A DNA stretch of 64,000 bases from the NCBI GenBank assembly GCA_041656175.1, contig JBBAEA010000001.1, forward strand, positions 7,559 to 71,558, written 5' to 3'. This document shows, piece after piece, positions 53,800-64,000 of this stretch; the first letter of the stretch is position 1, and every line of letters begins with the position of its first letter. The position numbers and the translations under genes are program-made. This stretch comes from Bradymonadales bacterium (lineage in GTDB: Bacteria > Myxococcota_A > Bradymonadia > UBA4248). The notes beneath the pieces were generated by a model, which was not told where the DNA came from, did not search any database, and was given only the letters and a program-made list of their open reading frames with translations.

Positions 53800-55161
53800 A
53801 TGACAAAAAAATATTTTGGAACAGATGGGATACGTGGTTTAGCGAATCAGGGGTCACTCACTGTGGATCTTGCGCTGCAGTTGGGTAAAGCGCTAGCGCA
53901 CTGTCTTCCCAAGCAGGGGCCTGCTTTTAAGGCGCTGATCGGTAAAGATCCCAGGCTTAGTGGCTATATGTTTGAAGCGGCTATTGCCGCAGGGGTTAAC
54001 GCTATGGGTGGCGATGTCATGTTTACGGGTCCGCTTCCCACGCCCGCGATAGCGCACCTAACCTCGAACATGCGCTGTGACGCGGGCGTGGTGATAAGTG
54101 CCTCGCACAATCCTTACCACGATAACGGGCTCAAGATCTTTGGTGCTGACGGATTTAAACTCCCCGATGAACTTGAGCATTCGCTGGAACGCTATCTAGA
54201 GGAACCGTCATTGCTTGACGCCCAATTGTCGCCGCGAAAGATCGGACGATCGCGGCGAATTGACGATGCAGCGGGGCGCTATATTTCGTTTCTCAAAATG
54301 ATTTTCCCGCGCGATTTGAGCTTACACGGCCTTAAGATTGTACTGGATTGCGCCAACGGCGCTGCGTACAAAATTGCCCCTACGGTGTTATGGGAGTTGG
54401 GGGCCGATATTATTGCGACTGGTGTTGAGCCTAATGGGTTTAATATTAATGACGGCGTTGGCGCCCTTCACCCCGAGCATTGCGCAGATTTGGTGCTAAA
54501 AACTGGCGCCGATCTTGGCATTAGCCTTGATGGAGATGCCGATAGACTTATCATGATCGATGAACGCGGCAACACGGTGGACGGCGACTTTGTCATGGCG
54601 ATCCTGGCGAAGGAATTAAAAGACGCTGGACGCCTAAACAGTAACTGTCTTGTTACCACGTTGATGAGTAATTTGGGATTGCACCATGCGATGCGTGATC
54701 ATGGCATTGAAACGATTCAAACAAAGGTGGGGGATCGTTACGTAGTCGAGGCGATGCGCGAGAAAAACCTCATCATTGGCGGCGAACAGAGTGGGCATAT
54801 CGTCTTATTCGAGCACTCCACCACTGGCGACGGACTTGTCGCAGCTCTTAAAGTACTCGCCGTCATGCAGCGAAGCGGCCAGAAACTATCCCAACTTGCC
54901 AAAATTATGCGCCGCTTCCCTCAGTGCTTGATTAACTTTAGGGTGGACTCAAAACCAGATTTCAGTTTGCTCGTAGAAAGCTCAAGTTTAATAGCAAGAT
55001 TAGAGAAAAAATACGGAGAAGATGGGAGGATACTCGTTAGATATTCGGGAACAGAGCCAAAGTGTCGCGTTATGATTGAAGGCAAGGATCAAGACGAAAT
55101 ACAGACTGACGCACAATGGGTGGCAGATACCATTGCTAAAGAAATACTTGCTCTGTCATGA
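53800..55161 (+). CDS. glmM: Phosphoglucosamine mutase
   Basis: GTDGIRG. Active-site Ser loop SASHNPYHDNGLK. DGDADR metal-binding loop. Confidence 0.9.
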   Translation: MTKKYFGTDGIRGLANQGSLTVDLALQLGKALAHCLPKQGPAFKALIGKDPRLSGYMFEAAIAAGVNAMGGDVMFTGPLPTPAIAHLTSNMRCDAGVVISASHNPYHDNGLKIFGADGFKLPDELEHSLERYLEEPSLLDAQLSPRKIGRSRRIDDAAGRYISFLKMIFPRDLSLHGLKIVLDCANGAAYKIAPTVLWELGADIIATGVEPNGFNINDGVGALHPEHCADLVLKTGADLGISLDGDADRLIMIDERGNTVDGDFVMAILAKELKDAGRLNSNCLVTTLMSNLGLHHAMRDHGIETIQTKVGDRYVVEAMREKNLIIGGEQSGHIVLFEHSTTGDGLVAALKVLAVMQRSGQKLSQLAKIMRRFPQCLINFRVDSKPDFSLLVESSSLIARLEKKYGEDGRILVRYSGTEPKCRVMIEGKDQDEIQTDAQWVADTIAKEILALS

Positions 55162-55245
55162 AGTGTACAAGCAGATAAACGACGTCGAATCATGGCTAAT
55201 TTTTAAGGTTTTCGTGTATTTACGCCGAAAAAAGCTGTTTCTAGC

Positions 55246-55275
55246 TTGACCAAATAGCGCTGAATGGCGTACAAT
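55246..55275 (+). promoter_or_regulatory. Putative sigma70-type promoter upstream of rex (-35 TTGACC, 18 bp, -10 TACAAT)
   Basis: Hexamers read directly. A TTTCGTG motif lies about 30 bp upstream. Confidence 0.35.
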
Positions 55276-55311
55276 TTGGCTAGGATTAGCAGCGAGGGGG
55301 TATAAAAAACA

Positions 55312-55944
55312 ATGAAAACGGAAATTCCAGAGCCAGCACTACTAAGAGTCCCATTATACATTCAAGCGCTAAAGCAGATCAAAGCGAGTGCGCCAAATAT
55401 GAAGACGGTGTCTGCTACGGTGCTTACCGAGAAGCTACAGCTCAACGCTTCCCAAGTACGAAAAGATCTGTCATACGCGGGATTGCTGGGTAAGCCGCGC
55501 GTAGGTTATGCGATAGACGAACTTATCGACGCACTTGAGCGCTTGGTTGGCTGGGATATGATACGTTATGCGTTTTTGGCTGGCGCTGGGCATTTGGCGG
55601 CGGCACTTTTAGCGCACGAAAAGATTGTCTCTCACGGTGTAAGAATCGTCGCTGCATTCGACAACGATCCGAATAAAATTGGGAAAAAGTTTGCCAGTGT
55701 CGATACTTATGCGATAGACATGCTTCCCTCTATGGCGCAGTCGATGAAAATTGATATTGGCATTATCGCCGTTCCCCACCAAGCAGCGCAAGATGTTGCA
55801 GATCTCATGGTAAGTGGTGGCATACGCGGGATCTGGAACTTTGCGCCTATTCGCCTTAATGTTCGCGACGATATTTTAGTGCAAAACGAAGACATTTTTT
55901 CTTCGGTTGTTTTGCTTTCCCAGCGTATACTTCCGCGTTCGTAG
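55312..55944 (+). CDS. rex: Redox-sensing transcriptional repressor Rex
   Basis: N-terminal wHTH plus a Rossmann NADH-binding domain (GAGHLAAAL). 210 aa. Confidence 0.8.
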   Translation: MKTEIPEPALLRVPLYIQALKQIKASAPNMKTVSATVLTEKLQLNASQVRKDLSYAGLLGKPRVGYAIDELIDALERLVGWDMIRYAFLAGAGHLAAALLAHEKIVSHGVRIVAAFDNDPNKIGKKFASVDTYAIDMLPSMAQSMKIDIGIIAVPHQAAQDVADLMVSGGIRGIWNFAPIRLNVRDDILVQNEDIFSSVVLLSQRILPRS

Positions 55945-56089
55945 TGCATTTGCTTGCTCGAAATTTTTCGCCGCAGCCTTTGGGGTGAGCTATCTACTTG
56001 CGGGTTTTAAGCGTTTTGGGTTGACTGCAGTTCTGGCAAAATGAAACTGGCTCTGAACGTCGCGGTTTTTATTTTTATGCGCAGCTTAG

Positions 56090-56761
56090 TTATTGCTCTT
56101 TAAACGCGAATAGCTCAAAGCGATTTTTTTCAAAACGTAGTAGCCCCTCGTTTTGTAGTTTGGCCAAAACGTTTGAGAGCGCGCTGCGGTCGACGCCAAG
56201 GTAGTCGGCTAGGGCTTGGCGATTAAAGGGGAGCTCGAAGCTGGAGCTTTGTGCCGTTCTTGCGTAGAAGCTGAGGTAGGTAAGTAGTTTTTCGCGCGTG
56301 CTACGCTGGCTTAAGATCGAGGTCTTTTCTATGCATTGGCGGTTTTTAAGCGCCATGACCGAAACGAGTTGACGCAGCATGCATGCGTTGTAGCTGCAGC
56401 AATCAATGCGGCCATCGAGTAGGCGAAGGACGTCCAAAATCATGATGAGGCTATCGCTTTGGGCTCGAACGCTAATGCTTGAGGGCAAGGCGCTGCAAGC
56501 TAAGGATTCCGCAAAAACCGCCCCAACGTGTAGTTCCGATATAATATGGCGGTTCCCCCAATAATCGATTTGTTCGATAAAGGCAAATCCCTCCAAAATA
56601 ATACCTACCCAACTGATTTTATCGCCAGTGGAAATAATATTTTGTCCCTTGGCGAAGCTTTTGGTGCTAGCGCAAAGGCAGCGTAGGGCTACCAGCACGT
56701 CTTTGATTTGCATGCCGCGGAATAGGGGTGTGTCGATTATGGTTTTGAGGTGCTTATCCAT
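56090..56761 (-). CDS. Crp/Fnr family transcriptional regulator
   Basis: cNMP-binding-like N-terminus. C-terminal HTH_Crp (TREKLLTYL...QALADYLGVDRSALSNVLAKLQNEGLL). Confidence 0.75.
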   Translation of the reverse strand: MDKHLKTIIDTPLFRGMQIKDVLVALRCLCASTKSFAKGQNIISTGDKISWVGIILEGFAFIEQIDYWGNRHIISELHVGAVFAESLACSALPSSISVRAQSDSLIMILDVLRLLDGRIDCCSYNACMLRQLVSVMALKNRQCIEKTSILSQRSTREKLLTYLSFYARTAQSSSFELPFNRQALADYLGVDRSALSNVLAKLQNEGLLRFEKNRFELFAFKEQ

Positions 56762-56953
56762 CTAATGTGTGAGCTCAGGTTGAAGAGTTGCGATTTTGAT
56801 ATGTAAGCGTGTAACTGCGCGATCTAGCGCGAAAGTGTGACTCATGAAGTTTTTTGCCTAGCGCTTTTGTAAAGTCGTTGTAGAAAGCAGTCCCTACTCA
56901 TTATGGCGCCAAGGACTGTGGTTTTCGGGCGCGCGAAGCGTGGCGAGCGCGCT

Positions 56954-57102
56954 GGGGGGTAGCGCGGGATCGCCTCCGTAAAATGCGTAATGAACGCATA
57001 TTGTGCGGTGGATGCGCGACTAGCAAATACACCGCACAATATTTTGCGTTCATTATCGCATTTTAGGAGGAAGCCCGCGCGTAGGGGGGCGTTTAGCCCC
57101 CC
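56954..57102. repeat. MITE-like element, family 1
   Basis: GGGGGGTAGCGCGGGATCGCC ... palindrome AATGCGTAATGAACGCATATTGTGCGGTGGATGCGCG...CACCGCACAATATTTTGCGTTCATTATCGCATT ... GGAGGAAGCCCGCGCGTAGGGGGGcgtttagCCCCCC. Confidence 0.9.
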
Positions 57103-57251
57103 AGCAAAGGAGTGTTAAAATAAAGTTTATTTTGCGAACATGGTGTTGGATAGTGCGAAAAAGTCATCTTGCGTGACAATTTGCGTCCATATCTTTATAT
57201 TGCGATTGCGGTATTGGGGCAAGTCCCACCGTGAACTGTGGAGACCGAGTT

Positions 57252-58778
57252 ATGTCGAATATTTTGCTGATGAATCGTTGCTCGCATGAGATGCGCGTGG
57301 CGCTGGTTGAGGGTGGGAGCATTGCGGAGTTTTTTGTGGAGCGCAATGTGGAGCGGGGGAGTGCGGGTAACATTTACAAGGGCAAGGTGATTCGGGTGCT
57401 GCCGGGGATGCAGGCGGCGTTTGTGGATATTGGGCAGGAGAAGGCGGCTTTTCTGTACGTGACGGATGTGTATAATAAGCATGAGGCGTACATGCAGGAG
57501 GTGGATGCGGATGCGATTGATGATCCGGAGATTCCGCAGTCGAGGGGGATGCATCGGCCTATTGGGGCGATTGAGGAGCATTTGCATGCGGGGCAATCGA
57601 TTCTCGTGCAGGTGTCGAAGGAGGCCATAGGCAGTAAGGGCGCGCGGGTGACGAGTCATATTTCGCTGCCGGGGCGTTTTTTGGTGCATATGCCGACCTT
57701 TGATCATTGTGGGGTTAGTCGGCGGATTCAGGGGGAGGGCGAGCGGGCGCGTTTGCGGGATCTGGTTAACGAGAGGCGTAAGGCGGGGACGGGAATTATT
57801 GTGCGTACGGCGAGTGAGGGGGCGAGTGAGCAGCAGATTGATGATGATTTTGAGTATTTAACGAATTTGTGGCGCAATATTATGGAGGGTTTTGAGACGA
57901 AACCGGCGCCGTCTCAGCTGTATGAGGAGCTGGATTTGCCGCTGCGCGCGATTCGGGACCTGTTGACGGACGGGGTCGAGGCGTTGGTGGTGGATTCGAA
58001 AGAAGATTTTGAGCGAATTAGCGAGTTTATTGAGAATTTTATGCCGAGTTATGCTTCGGCGCTGCGCTTGTATAATGACGCAGAGCCGATTTTTGATGCA
58101 TACGGGATAGAACTCGAGGTTTCGCGGGCGTTGGCGCGAAAGGTTTGGCTGCGAAGCGGTGGTTACCTTGTGTTTGACACGGCAGAGGCGCTAACGGCGA
58201 TTGATGTGAACACGGGGAAGTTTGTTGGCAAGCATACGCTTGAAGAGACCATTTTGCAGATTAACCTCGAGGCAGTCAAAGAGATTGCTTACCAACTTAG
58301 GTTACGCAACATCGGCGGAATTGTGATTATTGACTTTATCGATATGGAACGCAGCGTCAATAGAGATAAGGTTTTTGCGGCGCTGGAGGAAGCGCTTGCC
58401 ACGGATAAGGCAAAGACTCATGTGCTTAAAATCAGCGAGTTTGGCCTAGTCGAAATGACGCGAAAGCGAGTGCGCGAGAGTTTGATCCAGACTGTTTGCG
58501 AGCCTTGTTTTTATTGCGAAGCTAAGGGATATATTAAGAGTAGGCAGAGTGTGGGCTTTGAAATTTTGCGCGAAATCCAAAGAGAGGTCATGATGGGTGC
58601 GATGGGGTGGATTAATGTTTATGCGCACCCAGAGGTTGCGCATTATCTTTATGATGATGAAAGAGAAGCTATAGAGGCTATGGAGAAGCGCTATGGCCTC
58701 AGCATTGAGATACGCGCAAACACGGGTTTGCACCACGAACAATTTGAACTTGTCACGGGGAATGCGATGAGGCGATAA
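57252..58778 (+). CDS. rng: Ribonuclease G (RNase E/G family)
   Basis: S1 domain (GNIYKGKVIRVLPGMQAAFVDIG). RNase E/G catalytic core with DxxxxxD metal ligands. The Zn-link-like CEPCFYCEAKG. Confidence 0.85.
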   Translation: MSNILLMNRCSHEMRVALVEGGSIAEFFVERNVERGSAGNIYKGKVIRVLPGMQAAFVDIGQEKAAFLYVTDVYNKHEAYMQEVDADAIDDPEIPQSRGMHRPIGAIEEHLHAGQSILVQVSKEAIGSKGARVTSHISLPGRFLVHMPTFDHCGVSRRIQGEGERARLRDLVNERRKAGTGIIVRTASEGASEQQIDDDFEYLTNLWRNIMEGFETKPAPSQLYEELDLPLRAIRDLLTDGVEALVVDSKEDFERISEFIENFMPSYASALRLYNDAEPIFDAYGIELEVSRALARKVWLRSGGYLVFDTAEALTAIDVNTGKFVGKHTLEETILQINLEAVKEIAYQLRLRNIGGIVIIDFIDMERSVNRDKVFAALEEALATDKAKTHVLKISEFGLVEMTRKRVRESLIQTVCEPCFYCEAKGYIKSRQSVGFEILREIQREVMMGAMGWINVYAHPEVAHYLYDDEREAIEAMEKRYGLSIEIRANTGLHHEQFELVTGNAMRR

Positions 58779-58791
58779 CGAGGGTTGAGCT

Positions 58792-61698
58792 TTGAGATGT
58801 AAACACTGTAATGGCGAATTACCAAGCGAGCGGAAGCTGGACTTGTGCCCGCATTGCGAGAGACGTGTGGAGTTGGCTTCCTACACCGCCGACCCCAAGC
58901 AGGGGCTTGAGCGCTTGGAGCGGGAGAAGCTAAATTTTCTTAAAAAATCGTCGACTATCTCAAAGTATGAAGCGGAGAACATCAAGCGTTTTGCTGTCCC
59001 AGAGCGTAGAGACGAAGTTGAATTTACGGATTCATTCGATTTTGGCGGTCCCACTGAATTTAGCGTGGCGCCTAGTTTTGGTGCTACTGACGTATTTAGC
59101 GAATTCAACGACTTTGCGCCAAGCTCTGATTTTGGCGCCAGCAGCGAGTTTGAGCATTCTACGCAATTTGGCCTTCCGCTTGCGGACTACCAAGATGGCG
59201 ATGAAGTCGAGGATGGGGAGTCGTACGATTTTGGGGGCGCTACGATCTTGGAGCCGGGCTTAGGTCTTGGGCTTTTTGCAGAAGATCAAATTCAAGAAGA
59301 AAACGCGCAGTCCCATGAAGACGGCGAGAGCGATCCAACGCAAACGGACTGGTATAGATTTAGTAAGCCCGCGGAGCTACTAAGCGAGGACGTCATCAAG
59401 GCGAGTTTGGGGCGAGGGAGTGTTGAGGCTACGCCGAGCTCTAGCCAAGAGCAGCTGTCTCGGGATATGACGACGCAGGAGAAGCTACCGTGGGCTTTGG
59501 ATCGCGCGAGTAAGGCACCCCAAAAAGCAGAGTCACAACGTTTTTCGGGAGCAAAAATTTTGCGTCCCGTCAAAATTGTTCCTCGAAGCCAGCGTGCAGC
59601 CAAAGACCTTGTACAAAAAGACCTTGTACAAAAAGACCTTGTACAAAAAGACCTTGTACAAAAAGACCTTGTACAAAAAGACCTTGTACAAAAAGAGACT
59701 AAAACCGACGAGGCGATGCGGAACTCTTTGTCGGCACTTATCCCAGAGGCGAGCGTAGAAGAATACGATGCGAATTTCACGGCACTGCAGTTCAAAGTCG
59801 CTAAAACTGCTGAGCGCGAGCCTGTGCGGCAAGAACTAGACGATACTGCCAAGCTGCGAAATAGCTCTCTTTCCGACATCGTAAGCGTAACAGAGCCGGA
59901 TTTACTGAAGGAGGGAGCCGATGGATTTAGGGCGAGCGTTCTAGAAATTGATGAAGCAGATTTGCAGGAAGTAGACGCTAGCGACGAATTTACGCACAGC
60001 AGCGAAGCCGAAATTGAACAGCTCTCCGAACTCAAAACACTCCTACCTGATTCTCCGGATTTCTCTGCCTCACTCTCTGATCTCAAAACCTTGCTCCCCG
60101 ATTCCGCCCAACCGCAACTCGCGCTGGAGCTGCCATACTCACCGCGCAAGGAATTAGTGCGTGTATCCGCGGCAGAGAGCGAGTTTTCTTTACAAAATGA
60201 CGACGCCGAAGCTGAAGAAAGTTCAGGTATTGAAATTCTCCCACAAGTTGAAGAAAAGCTACGTGCTAACCTAACTCCCTTCCTTTGGCTTGGGATCTTT
60301 GCCCTGTTATTTTTAGCATCCTTACTACTTCTTTACTTCCTCGGCTATTTTGACGCCCGTCGCGGACATGCTCCCAAAAGCAAAGAAGGGCAGCGCGTCG
60401 AGGTTGAGCAGGAGGAGCCAGAATCAAGATTGCCGCGCGAGGATATTTATAATCTCGAACGCGCTACGCGCCGAGCGTCTGAATCCGCACACAGAGCCTT
60501 TGATTTTCAAGCGCATCTCTTGCCCACCCTCATCAAAAAAGCGCAAGAGGCTCAAAACGCCGACGAGGCTATCTCGCACTGGGCCAATGCCCACGCGCTT
60601 TTCCCGCACTCTCTGCCCGCCATTCACGGTTTAGGCAATGCCCTCATTCAAGCCAAACGCTACCGCGAAGCGCGCGAGGCGCTACGGGCTTCGCAAGACG
60701 CCATCGCTTTTGACGAAGAGACCCAAGCCCTTGTCCTACGCGCTTTTCGCGAAGACCCCTATTTCATTTCGCCGCCAGAATACATCGACGACCTACGCTG
60801 GGATGTCATCGATCCCCTCGGCGGCGGTTCCACTCTAACCTTCAAAATCCAAAATAAGGGCAAAATCATCGCAGCCCTCAAACCCCTCCAAACTCGCCGA
60901 CAATCCAACTACCGCGCAGAAATTGCGGCGTGGCGCATCTGCGAATTGCTGCAATGCGACTTTAAAGTTCCGTATAACAAAGAAGTTCGCGTTGAAAAAT
61001 CCGTCTTTTTGACCATGTATTCACGCTCCACCTCCAGCCGAAAAGATAGCTATACCCCGCAATTGGTCGATTTAATCTGGACGCGCCACGATGGCAAGGA
61101 ATACTTACACGCCACCTTAAAAGAGTGGATCGAGGACTTTACACGCTTCCCCATCGAATATACTTCGCTTTGGAAGCCATGGCTTGCACAAAATTCAGCG
61201 CCCGCTCCAAGCGAACTTAAAAATTCACTCGCCCCTATTCAAGAGCGCAGCCGAATTAATCGCCTTTACGACAAAATCCTCGCCGCCGCCCCCGATCTCG
61301 ATACCCAAGGCTTAGCAGCCCAAATCGCACAAGTACTCATCTTTGACTACCTCACGGGCAACTGGGATCGCTTTAGCGGAGTGGAGGATTGGTGGGGCGT
61401 CAACTGCCAATTTGCCAAAAACAAAATTGTTTCAATCGACAATGGCGCCGCTTTCCAGCCATATTCAAACAAAAAGGTTCTGGAGCGTTTTCTACTCGCT
61501 CAAAAGTACGGCCGGCGCTTTATTCGCGACCTTCACGCTTTGGACAAAGACGAGACCTTGGCTTTGCTTTTCCCCGATGCAGATTCACGTGAACTGCGCA
61601 GTTATGAACAATTTTGGCGTCAGCGCAGCGCGCTTTTGGCGCATGTTGACTCGCTGGTCGAGCAATACGGCGCCGAAAACGTTTACGCCTTCCCCTAA
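58792..61698 (+). CDS. Zinc-ribbon / acidic disordered region with KDLVQ x6 repeat / single TM / C-terminal type II PI4-kinase-like (PI3_PI4-kinase superfamily) domain protein
   Basis: N-terminus CKHCNG...CPHCERR. A 15-bp tandem repeat x6 at 59602-59691. TM LTPFLWLGIFALLFLASLLLLYFLGYF followed by a basic stretch. The C-terminal domain motifs GGGSTLTFKIQNKGKIIAALKP, LIFDYLTGNWDRFSG and IVSIDNGAAF match the PI4KII signatures GSSGSYFVKD.GRIIAVFKP, LDYIIRNTDRGNDN and AIDNGLAFP. Confidence 0.6.
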   Translation: MRCKHCNGELPSERKLDLCPHCERRVELASYTADPKQGLERLEREKLNFLKKSSTISKYEAENIKRFAVPERRDEVEFTDSFDFGGPTEFSVAPSFGATDVFSEFNDFAPSSDFGASSEFEHSTQFGLPLADYQDGDEVEDGESYDFGGATILEPGLGLGLFAEDQIQEENAQSHEDGESDPTQTDWYRFSKPAELLSEDVIKASLGRGSVEATPSSSQEQLSRDMTTQEKLPWALDRASKAPQKAESQRFSGAKILRPVKIVPRSQRAAKDLVQKDLVQKDLVQKDLVQKDLVQKDLVQKETKTDEAMRNSLSALIPEASVEEYDANFTALQFKVAKTAEREPVRQELDDTAKLRNSSLSDIVSVTEPDLLKEGADGFRASVLEIDEADLQEVDASDEFTHSSEAEIEQLSELKTLLPDSPDFSASLSDLKTLLPDSAQPQLALELPYSPRKELVRVSAAESEFSLQNDDAEAEESSGIEILPQVEEKLRANLTPFLWLGIFALLFLASLLLLYFLGYFDARRGHAPKSKEGQRVEVEQEEPESRLPREDIYNLERATRRASESAHRAFDFQAHLLPTLIKKAQEAQNADEAISHWANAHALFPHSLPAIHGLGNALIQAKRYREAREALRASQDAIAFDEETQALVLRAFREDPYFISPPEYIDDLRWDVIDPLGGGSTLTFKIQNKGKIIAALKPLQTRRQSNYRAEIAAWRICELLQCDFKVPYNKEVRVEKSVFLTMYSRSTSSRKDSYTPQLVDLIWTRHDGKEYLHATLKEWIEDFTRFPIEYTSLWKPWLAQNSAPAPSELKNSLAPIQERSRINRLYDKILAAAPDLDTQGLAAQIAQVLIFDYLTGNWDRFSGVEDWWGVNCQFAKNKIVSIDNGAAFQPYSNKKVLERFLLAQKYGRRFIRDLHALDKDETLALLFPDADSRELRSYEQFWRQRSALLAHVDSLVEQYGAENVYAFP

Positions 61699-61750
61699 AG
61701 CCCAGAAAACATGATGAATTCAAGCCATAAAGATTTCTTTTTTGGGGTAG

Positions 61751-61891
61751 GGGGAAGTTTCCCCCTCGCGCGGGCTTCCCACAAAATCCGCTTAGCGCCG
61801 CGTTATTTTATGCGTCGTTCTCGCTTTACGCTCGACCACCGCATAAAATGCGGCGCTATGCGTCTTTTGCGCGTGATCCCGCGCTACCCCC
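61751..61891. repeat. MITE-like element, family 1, overlapping the annotated 5' end of the downstream lipoprotein ORF
   Basis: GGGGGaagtttCCCCCTCGCGCGGGCTTCCC ... palindrome TTATTTTATGCGTCG.../...CGCATAAAATGCGGCG ... GCGTGATCCCGCGCTACCCCC. Confidence 0.85.
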
Positions 61892-63159
61892 TCAGATTTT
61901 TTGCACAAAACTTTGTGTATGCTATTTTAGTCTTGTTTGCATGTTTTTCTCTATTAATGATTGCAGGGTGCAGTGTTATTACAAGCGCCGATGGCTGTTT
62001 TGAGGAGAGCAAGGACTCGGGTCGGATTTCACGCAATGAAAACAATCTGCCATTTATGCATTTTTTCAAGTTAAATTTGAAGCAATACAACGAAAATATT
62101 GCGGGCAGTATTGAGCTTTTTACTCTACCCAACTACACCTTATTTATGCAACAACCCACGCACATGACTCAAAGCGCGGAGCATTATTTTTGCACGCGGC
62201 TTGAGGATGGCTATCGACGTGGGGATTCTGTTTTTTTGATCTTTGCCGATGCGTTGAACCGACGCTGGCTTTTGAACGCAAAGCTCAACGATGTAAAATT
62301 TATCGGTAATCTGTCGCGTTTAAACGCCAACAACATACCGATTTTGACGAAAGTCGATGGCTGTGAACCGCTGCTTGCTGAGGATGCGAATTTTCGCAAT
62401 ACGCATGGTCTAAGTGAAAACCAAATAGTTTTCGACTTAGTACGAAGTGATGTTCCAGAGGAGAAGTTGGACTGTGTAGAATACTACGTAAAATCGACAT
62501 ACAATGTCCAAATTCCCTTTCAGTTACCGAGCTGTAATCATCTACGCATGGCTTTGGTGCTAACGCGCATACAGGCGAGTAATATAGTGGATCAGCCTAC
62601 AGATGCGCTAACGTTTCATGAGTATGCAACGGCGTCGATGGATATTTTTGACATCAATCCTAGCTACAATACTTTAGCCTTTTATTTTCGCTCATTGCCA
62701 AAGCTTCTACTCAAAACGGAGCCGAAATTCGCTATTGGGAACTTGATTATATACGAAGATTTACCGCCTTATAACAATCGTTGGGACAACATAGCGACAG
62801 GTAATATGGATGAGCCGCTTCTTGCGTACTTACCGTATCAAACGCTGATTTTTCACGATGTCAAAGACCCCAAAATCCGACTATATCCACGCCGTTCAGA
62901 CTATAGCTCTCAGGAGGAGCCGCTAAATACAGAGCAGTGGGAGCGAAAACCAGGTTGGTACGTTTATAGTTACGTTGCCGAAAATGTTAAAATGGAGAAC
63001 TTTAAGATACAACTTATACAGAAGCTGCAAAGAGAGGATATCGTCGAGTTGCAACTTAAAAGCATAGCCGAAGAGTGCCAACACTGCTATATGAGTAGCA
63101 GAAGCGCTGAACCCCATTGTGCTGACTGTCCCACTGTATTTAAGGCTTTATCATTATAA
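61855..63159 (+). CDS. Hypothetical lipoprotein (start uncertain; the 5' end of the ORF overlaps a MITE)
   Basis: Lipobox LLMIAGC-S. No recognised domain. The ORF-track start at 61711 and the first in-frame ATG both lie inside MITE copy 61751-61891. Confidence 0.4.
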   Translation, partial: AMRLLRVIPRYPLRFFAQNFVYAILVLFACFSLLMIAGCSVITSADGCFEESKDSGRISRNENNLPFMHFFKLNLKQYNENIAGSIELFTLPNYTLFMQQPTHMTQSAEHYFCTRLEDGYRRGDSVFLIFADALNRRWLLNAKLNDVKFIGNLSRLNANNIPILTKVDGCEPLLAEDANFRNTHGLSENQIVFDLVRSDVPEEKLDCVEYYVKSTYNVQIPFQLPSCNHLRMALVLTRIQASNIVDQPTDALTFHEYATASMDIFDINPSYNTLAFYFRSLPKLLLKTEPKFAIGNLIIYEDLPPYNNRWDNIATGNMDEPLLAYLPYQTLIFHDVKDPKIRLYPRRSDYSSQEEPLNTEQWERKPGWYVYSYVAENVKMENFKIQLIQKLQREDIVELQLKSIAEECQHCYMSSRSAEPHCADCPTVFKALSL

Positions 63160-63191: not shown

Positions 63192-64000
63192 ATGTCACCA
63201 TTTTATGCACAAACTCAAGCGAACTGGCAATTTGTACAAAGGATTTTGTACTTAAGAGTCTTTGTTCTGCTGATTGCTGTTTGTGCGTTACTAAGCCCTT
63301 GGAAGCTTGTATTTGCACAAGAACTTACGAGTCAATACTTCGCCAAAGCTGCGCCAGAGCAGGAGCTAACGGTAGCGATAGTCCCCAATACCGTCTCCTT
63401 GTATTTGTATCCAGATACGACCTTACACTTTGACATTGACACGGCCGAGCTGCGTCAAGCGATGCAGAATTTTGTTGTGAATTATCCGTATACAAAATTG
63501 TTGACCCACAAAGAACTTGTGAAAAAGCTGCAAGTAGAGAGCCCAGCTCGAGCTTCAGCCTATGGTCAATCTTTGATAGATATAGGATATGCGCGCACGC
63601 ACTTGTCGAACTTTAGCATTGAACCTGCTATATCCTTGCTATCTCGTATTATCGACAATCACCAAGTCGCACTCACGTACGCATACGCGCCACTCGCCTT
63701 GGCCGAAGCTTATCAGTATCTTGGCTATGCGCTTTTAGATAAGGTCGCCAATGAACCCGAACTTGAGGCAACTTTACGCGAAGAGATCCGCAGTAGCTTC
63801 CTCGAAATGGTACGCTTAGCGCCGCACGTCGTATTGCGAAGCGGAAGACAGCCCGAGGAGCGTGTCGTTGTATATAATGAAGCGCGTCATCTCTTTCTCC
63901 AAAACAGCGCGATACGAAAAACAGGTGAAGATTTAGCTCAACGCATTGCGGATGCGCTCAAGGTAGATGTTTTGCTTTTTCCTAGAGTTGTACAAAATGC
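63192..64000 (+). CDS. Hypothetical exported protein, 3'-truncated by the window end
   Basis: Open frame with no stop from the ATG at 63192 to the window edge. N-terminal signal-like LRVFVLLIAVCALLSPWKLVFA. Not in the ORF track because it lacks a stop. Confidence 0.35.
   Translation, partial: MSPFYAQTQANWQFVQRILYLRVFVLLIAVCALLSPWKLVFAQELTSQYFAKAAPEQELTVAIVPNTVSLYLYPDTTLHFDIDTAELRQAMQNFVVNYPYTKLLTHKELVKKLQVESPARASAYGQSLIDIGYARTHLSNFSIEPAISLLSRIIDNHQVALTYAYAPLALAEAYQYLGYALLDKVANEPELEATLREEIRSSFLEMVRLAPHVVLRSGRQPEERVVVYNEARHLFLQNSAIRKTGEDLAQRIADALKVDVLLFPRVVQN

Follow-up and report, generated by a model that had tools for sequence, protein, structure and literature searches.

A bacterial, probably periplasmic kinase family whose closest known relatives are the Fam20 kinases of the secretory pathway

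The gene studied here encodes a 968-amino-acid (aa) protein of a Bradymonadales bacterium. It lies at 58792..61698 on the forward strand, with a TTG start, in a stretch of 64,000 nucleotides (nt) that is called the window below. An earlier note, made from the sequence alone, had read the C-terminal part of this protein as a type II phosphatidylinositol 4-kinase (PI4KII) domain. We found that the closest known relatives of the family to which the domain belongs are the Fam20 secretory-pathway kinases, not the type II PI4-kinases. The family is bacterial and probably periplasmic, and it is a member of neither PF00454 (PI3K/PI4K) nor PF06702 (Fam20C) as these are curated. For the window protein we favour, with reasonable though far from full confidence, a bitopic inner-membrane protein whose Fam20-homologous, catalytically competent kinase domain faces the periplasm. 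The protein is identical to NCBI MFA5623471.1 from a Bradymonadales metagenome-assembled genome (MAG), which is labelled only 'tetratricopeptide repeat protein', so that the kinase-like domain is without annotation in that record.

Pfam and NCBIfam scans of residues 650–968 gave no family even at E ≤ 10, and neither database holds a model for the domain. The absence of a PF00454 match had been set beforehand in the earlier note as evidence against its reading, and at E ≤ 10 neither the domain nor the whole protein matched PF00454. A single-sequence search of the PDB matched only tetratricopeptide repeat (TPR) proteins; Fam20 appeared only with a profile of the family. It turned out that this profile of the kinase part, compared with all PDB sequences, found Fam20 proteins only and no PI3K/PI4K chain at E ≤ 10. 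The best match was ceFam20 (FAMK-1) of C. elegans (4kqa, E 1.7e-7), in which positions 6–318 of the 320 profile positions were aligned with residues 89–421 of the chain. Human FAM20C, the Golgi casein kinase (E 1.2e-6), zebrafish DrFam20C1 (E 8.3e-6) and FAM20A (E 6.5e-4) followed, and the Fam20B xylosylkinase matched more weakly (E 0.23). Fam20 is the only significant sequence-profile match among solved structures, and it spans the whole domain. When 19 family members were scanned singly against Pfam, PF06702 matched below its threshold in 15 of them (best E 4.5e-4), and weak matches to PF00454 were seen in four (best E 0.039).

The structural comparison gave the same nearest relative. An AlphaFold model of the kinase domain, made from the family alignment, reached a predicted local distance difference test score (pLDDT) of 94.7 and a predicted template modelling score of 0.92. 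In a Foldseek search of the PDB, Fam20 chains took ranks 1–12 (E 1.2e-9 to 1.9e-7), the H. pylori kinase CtkA came next (1.2e-4), and PI4KII was absent from the top 50. A search of a viral structure library gave nothing above a TMq of 0.44. The bilobal kinase fold with D-x4-N and D-x-G motifs is present, but it does not discriminate, since it is common to PI4KII, Fam20, HipA and CtkA. PI4KIIα is a genuine second neighbour of the domain, with similar motif blocks and a membrane association of its own. Thus the kinship proposed in the earlier note had the right branch of the fold, and it was the nearest relative, in sequence as in structure, that proved to be Fam20.

The kinase domain and its motifs are located as follows.

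60736..61695, forward strand: Fam20-like kinase domain, aa 649–968 (320 aa)
60817..60885, forward strand: Gly-rich loop and strand with the ATP-binding lysine K697, LGGGSTLTFKIQNKGKIIAALKP, aa 676–698
60919..60921, forward strand: conserved glutamate E710 of the AEIAAW helix, aligned with AEIA[A/T]F of Fam20
60940..60957, forward strand: cysteine pair C717/C722, covarying in the family
61345..61371, forward strand: catalytic loop D852-YLTG-N857-W-D859-R860, within LIFDYLTGNWDRFSG, aa 850–864
61438..61446, forward strand: D883-N-G, the 'DFG-like' metal-binding motif, within IVSIDNGAAFQP, aa 880–891

Conservation was counted over the 184 family proteins retrieved. D852, N857, D859 and R860 are each invariant (184/184), and D883 and N884 are each kept in 183. 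In the family alignment, K697 is present in all 178 ungapped rows and E710 in 176 of 179. Altogether, the catalytic lysine and glutamate, the D-x4-N-x-D-R loop and the DNG motif are retained in 98–100% of the family, with no substitution running through the homologues. This near-total conservation means that the three motif blocks, which the earlier note had recognised, are not chance matches. Pseudokinases typically lose at least one of these catalytic residues. In Fam20A, for instance, a metal-binding glutamate is replaced (PMC7948968). Because the catalytic residues are almost invariant here, unlike those of pseudokinases, the domain is probably an active phosphotransferase. The cysteines C717 and C722 occur together in 168 proteins, are both missing from 14, and occur singly in only two. 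This covariation suggests a disulfide between them.

The likeness to Fam20 extends along the catalytic motifs: the xFKP lysine, the AEIAA glutamate, D-x-L-x-x-N-x-D-R and DNG are common to both. The xFKP strand of the family aligns with A[VL]FKP of Fam20. The catalytic loop FDYLTGNWDR corresponds to LDYLIGNQDRH in ceFam20 and FDFL[MI]GNMDRH in vertebrate Fam20, and the metal motif SIDNGA to LDNG or LDHG. The type II orientation would also be shared, with the kinase outside the cytosol (in the Golgi for Fam20, and predicted for the window protein). The differences are considerable. Identity is only 13–18%, below the Pfam gathering threshold, and the domain of ~320 aa is ~80 shorter than the ~400-aa Fam20 core, with 248 residues superposed. 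The window domain has DRFSG where Fam20 has DRHHYE, so that the histidine after D-R is a phenylalanine, and the positions of C717 and C722 are not cysteines in the aligned Fam20 sequences. A TPR segment precedes the kinase domain of the family, and the long forms add a zinc ribbon and an acidic linker, both presumably cytoplasmic. Finally, the family is bacterial (Myxococcota/Bradymonadia), whereas Fam20 is described as an animal family (PMC7948968).

Three further kinases were compared. CtkA (JHP940), a proinflammatory kinase of Helicobacter pylori, shows 12% identity and no match at the sequence level; it is smaller (~275–290 residues in the solved chains), lacks a membrane anchor and TPR, and has another taxonomic range. 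CotH is an atypical bacterial kinase related to Fam20C that phosphorylates Bacillus spore-coat proteins (bioRxiv 10.1101/2020.02.18.954925; PMC12189002). We rejected it as the closest sequence or fold, since the family profile did not find it and no member scanned had a CotH match in Pfam. The toxin kinase HipA was rejected too: there was no HipA profile match and no adjoining gene for a HipB-like antitoxin, the build of the family is that of membrane-anchored proteins or lipoproteins, and the similarity is far below that to Fam20.

A homology search found relatives at 25–54% identity, all without a name or a domain assignment. An exhaustive profile search raised their number to 1,391 cluster representatives at E ≤ 1e-3, of which 308 had E ≤ 1e-30. 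All 37 relatives in named genomes belong to Myxococcota/Bradymonadia or to unclassified or mislabelled MAGs. The host genomes include Lujinxingia, Microvenator, Polyangiaceae and many animal-gut and environmental MAGs; several carry two paralogues, and the window holds no second one. The closest relatives (loci L006, L007, L009, L013, L014 and L008/L034) were recovered in MAGs from the guts of termites, ruminants and other animals, under the labels 'Proteobacteria bacterium' or even 'Bacteroidaceae bacterium'. Their gene content and synteny point to Myxococcota/Bradymonadia, so that the labels seem wrong or the bins mixed. Literature searches for bacterial Fam20-like proteins returned nothing relevant and no description of this family.

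The features of the window protein outside the kinase domain are listed below. They agree with the open reading frame (ORF) and the elements described in the earlier note, that is, the Cys4 ribbon, the acidic region with its perfect repeat and the single transmembrane (TM) helix followed by RRGHAPKSK.

58792..58926, forward strand: N-terminal Cys4 zinc ribbon, presumably cytoplasmic; C3, C6, C19 and C22 form CxxC-x12-CxxC at residues 3–22
58927..60264, forward strand: acidic low-complexity linker, presumably cytoplasmic and disordered; aa 46–491, 446 residues, 21% D+E, net charge −46
59602..59696, forward strand: perfect in-frame tandem repeat of 15 bp, (KDLVQ)6; 6.3 copies at 100% identity
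60265..60351, forward strand: single TM helix, aa 492–520, the sole hydrophobic segment, followed by DARRGHAPKSK
60352..60735, forward strand: helical/TPR segment joining the membrane to the kinase domain, aa 521–648

The earlier note had overlooked the TPR segment: Pfam TPR_19 matches aa 586–647 at E 5.6e-6, better than the curated cut-off. The same helical/TPR segment is present in the short lipoprotein relatives described below. The zinc ribbon matches Pfam Zn_ribbon_6 weakly (E 0.1–0.18).

The fusion of a zinc ribbon and a TM helix to the kinase domain is not a singular one but a recurrent architecture. Of the 184 proteins, 71 are long forms, defined by a length of at least 700 aa. In 63 of the 71 there is one clear hydrophobic helix, ~160–190 residues before the Gly-rich loop where this could be located, and at least two CxxC motifs lie within the first 80 residues in 51. 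Behind the ribbon, the long forms (P0043–P0075) share a short motif, S[VI]E[AS]GL[SA]FL......[IV]SKF[DE], presumed to be cytoplasmic, which in the window protein reads GLERLEREKLNFLKKSSTISKYE (within aa 1–70, 58792..59000). The number of KDLVQ units differs among near-identical alleles from other MAGs, with five in P0188 (963 aa) and two in P0191 (948 aa) against six in the window. The 15-bp unit is thus an in-frame repeat of variable number within the presumed cytoplasmic linker. One gene call of 660 aa, P0190, begins right behind this repeat.

The remaining family proteins are mostly 440–530 aa long. Their N-terminus is basic and leads into a hydrophobic stretch and a lipobox cysteine (LLIAC, ISAC or LVGC, for example), followed by the helical/TPR segment and the kinase. 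A strict heuristic detected the lipobox in 54 of the 92 short forms that are complete; 17 more have a hydrophobic N-terminus, and several others are visibly lipobox-like. A signal peptide with a lipobox would place the TPR/kinase module of these relatives outside the cytoplasm. To this the charges around the helix of the long forms can be added. Within 15 residues of the helix, the 63 long forms carry a mean of 2.57 lysines and arginines (K+R) on the N-terminal side and 1.60 on the C-terminal side; the N-terminal side is richer in 38 of them and the C-terminal side in 11. Such an excess fits the N-in/C-out orientation. In the opposite topology, the acidic N-terminus of 490 residues, zinc ribbon included, would need to cross the membrane although it has no signal peptide. 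The lipoprotein relatives, the charge flanks of the family, the cysteine covariation and the exported proteins encoded next to the kinase (see below) favour the outside orientation. We therefore consider it likely that the kinase domain of the window protein is periplasmic. The earlier note had placed it in the cytoplasm by the positive-inside rule, a location against which the family flanks, the lipoprotein relatives and the exported proteins argue.

The kinase gene lies in a conserved row of genes.

57231..58778, forward strand: RNase E/G-family gene; 13 nt separate its end from the kinase gene
61711..63159, forward strand: gene of a lipoprotein, which probably starts in fact at 61810 or 61858
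63192..64000, forward strand, cut by the window end: third gene of the cassette, with an N-terminal signal peptide

The order RNase E/G, long kinase, ~420-aa protein, ~500-aa protein is conserved among the orthologues of the window protein (48–60% identity). The RNase E/G gene keeps its position upstream of the kinase in the window and ten related loci, with 68–75% identity. This adjacency may be no more than synteny. The ~420-aa lipoprotein gene is the immediate neighbour of the kinase in 13 genomes (counted by locus, the window and 12 others), and the third gene has a homologue of ~500 aa at the corresponding place in 12 loci. The adjacency of kinase and lipoprotein persists in two loci that have no RNase gene (L015 and L018). 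In L016, a stop codon follows the kinase, and the two ORFs are not fused. Pfam holds no family for the lipoprotein or the third protein. The lipoprotein has an invariant lipobox cysteine, then G-x-[FY]-x-E-x-x-x-S-x-R, then four more invariant cysteines, five in total; word-index searches found only three relatives of it. We also considered this motif as a Fam20C S-x-E site, because some orthologues read FEESAES or FEESIES. This was rejected: the spacing is not conserved, and the lipoprotein of the window has FEESKDS. Promoter and terminator scans did no better than on shuffled sequence and are uninformative, so that it is the short gaps (13, 12–160 and 32 nt) and the conserved order that suggest co-transcription. 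Two exported proteins encoded directly downstream fit an extracytoplasmic role of the kinase, and both of them, the lipoprotein as well as the protein with the signal peptide, are first candidates for its partners or substrates.

Beside other subfamilies, Lon protease, RNase II/R and a SpoU methylase were seen, none of which is a conserved neighbour. Short lipoprotein paralogues stand directly downstream of TamB and Omp85/POTRA genes of outer-membrane biogenesis in L001 (1..7401), L002/L003 (1..7497) and L022. A shared ORF of ~190 aa also precedes the short kinase paralogue in L001 and L022. In L002/L003, a 190-aa ORF is found at the corresponding position, and in L002 it overlaps the kinase start by 8 nt.

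For the window protein we propose the following arrangement. The zinc ribbon and the long repeat-bearing acidic linker would lie in the cytoplasm, followed by one TM helix, and the Fam20-like kinase would be presented to the periplasm on a TPR stalk in type II orientation. The nucleotide would be bound through the Gly-rich loop, K697 and E710. Phosphate transfer would use D859 as the catalytic base, with N857 and D883 holding the metal, and the acceptor may be a protein or a glycan of the cell envelope. The ribbon, the conserved motif behind it and the acidic linker could offer the cell a means of regulating or localising the protein from the cytoplasm.

Several points weigh against a periplasmic Fam20-like kinase of this kind. 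The window domain itself gave no PF06702 match, and no member reached the curated threshold of that family. The signal-peptide and topology calls come from in-house heuristics, not from dedicated predictors. The window protein itself belongs to the 11 long forms with the reverse charge pattern, having two K/R before the helix and five after it, which explains the cytoplasmic placement in the earlier note. The predicted disulfide and the active-site geometry are taken from the sequence and not from model coordinates. The cassette is confined to the orthologue group of the window protein and does not stand beside other subfamilies, its conservation may partly reflect shared ancestry, and the structure model of the lipoprotein, made from three sequences, is unusable (pLDDT 39). 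The main weakness is the phosphate donor. ATP is not known to occur in the periplasm, so that an ATP-dependent kinase has no obvious donor there, and bacteria are not known to use ATP for phosphorylation outside the cytoplasm. The window protein may have the minority topology, there may be an unrecognised supply of ATP, or the chemistry may be a different one.

Three other explanations have to be weighed. The domain could be a periplasmic Fam20-like kinase of a glycan or small molecule, in the manner of Fam20B, acting on an exopolysaccharide, on lipopolysaccharide or a lipid-linked sugar, or on a peptidoglycan component. Fam20B activity is regarded as ancestral among Fam20 (PMC7948968), and the position of short paralogues beside the TamB and Omp85 genes in L001, L002/L003 and L022 would suit such a role. 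Nevertheless, the profile fits the protein kinases ceFam20 and FAM20C (E 1e-7 to 1e-6) far better than Fam20B, and the conserved cassette has no glycosyltransferase or polysaccharide genes. We consider a glycan or small-molecule substrate unlikely.

Very unlikely, in our opinion, is a type II PI4K-like lipid kinase that is anchored by the TM helix at the cytoplasmic face and phosphorylates the head group of a membrane lipid. It would explain the weak PF00454 matches in four of the 19 members and the C-terminus-in flanks of the window protein; ATP is at hand in the cytoplasm, and the ~130–160 residues between the domain and the membrane also speak for it. Against these stand the missing PF00454 match of the window domain itself, the absence of PI4K from the PDB profile search and from the Foldseek top 50, and the fact that Fam20 outscores PI4K on every measure. 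The short relatives are lipoproteins, most long-form flanks fit N-in/C-out, and the acidic N-terminus with its zinc ribbon would need export without a signal peptide. CCPCC is the palmitoylation motif of PI4KIIα. The window kinase domain has no CCPCC-like cluster, only three separated cysteines (C717, C722 and C872), and the kinase domain of the family would be found across the membrane from that of PI4KIIα.

The least probable explanation, which we give little credence, is that the kinase fold serves another role: AMPylation or glutamylation, as in SelO and SidJ, a non-catalytic scaffold, or lipoprotein forms delivered to prey. In its favour, no ATP is expected in the periplasm, enzymes of the kinase fold are known that have other chemistries (PMC7948968), Bradymonadales are predators (PMC7460792), and the proinflammatory CtkA follows Fam20 and PI4KIIα among the structural neighbours; yet all residues for canonical phosphotransfer are invariant, which speaks against a pseudokinase scaffold, an anchor in the inner membrane of the producer means that the long forms are not deliverable to prey, and the conserved cassette has no secretion-system genes.

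Fam20 kinases are responsible for most of the secreted phosphoproteome of animals. They have been described as an animal family (PMC7948968, PMC5865150), and in the literature searched, no bacterial kinase other than CotH had a sequence link to Fam20C. If a large family of bacteria has an intact active site and a domain nearer to Fam20 than CotH is to that domain, it would provide a candidate, open to testing, for the source from which the secretory-pathway kinases arose. It is possible, although we regard it as tentative, that Myxococcota/Bradymonadia have widespread ATP-dependent protein or glycan kinases in the periplasm or at the cell surface, which would be a sister group and possibly the source of animal Fam20. 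Together with the co-encoded lipoprotein and secreted protein, these would form an unrecognised extracytoplasmic phosphorylation system, coupled to the cell interior by the zinc ribbon and the variable-repeat linker. If the predicted orientation is right, the question is how the kinase works, and on what, in a compartment thought to be free of ATP. The group includes cultured members (Lujinxingia, Bradymonas, Persicimonas, Microvenator), so that genetics and phosphoproteomics of the envelope are feasible.

Two minor observations concern the gene itself. Its TTG start is preceded by GAGGG, ~9 nt upstream, and the stored database copy of the protein (P0042) begins with L. Within the region 54000..62000, the GC skew rises to +0.36 over ~56500–59500 and then falls to −0.2 over ~59500–61900, switching inside the kinase gene.

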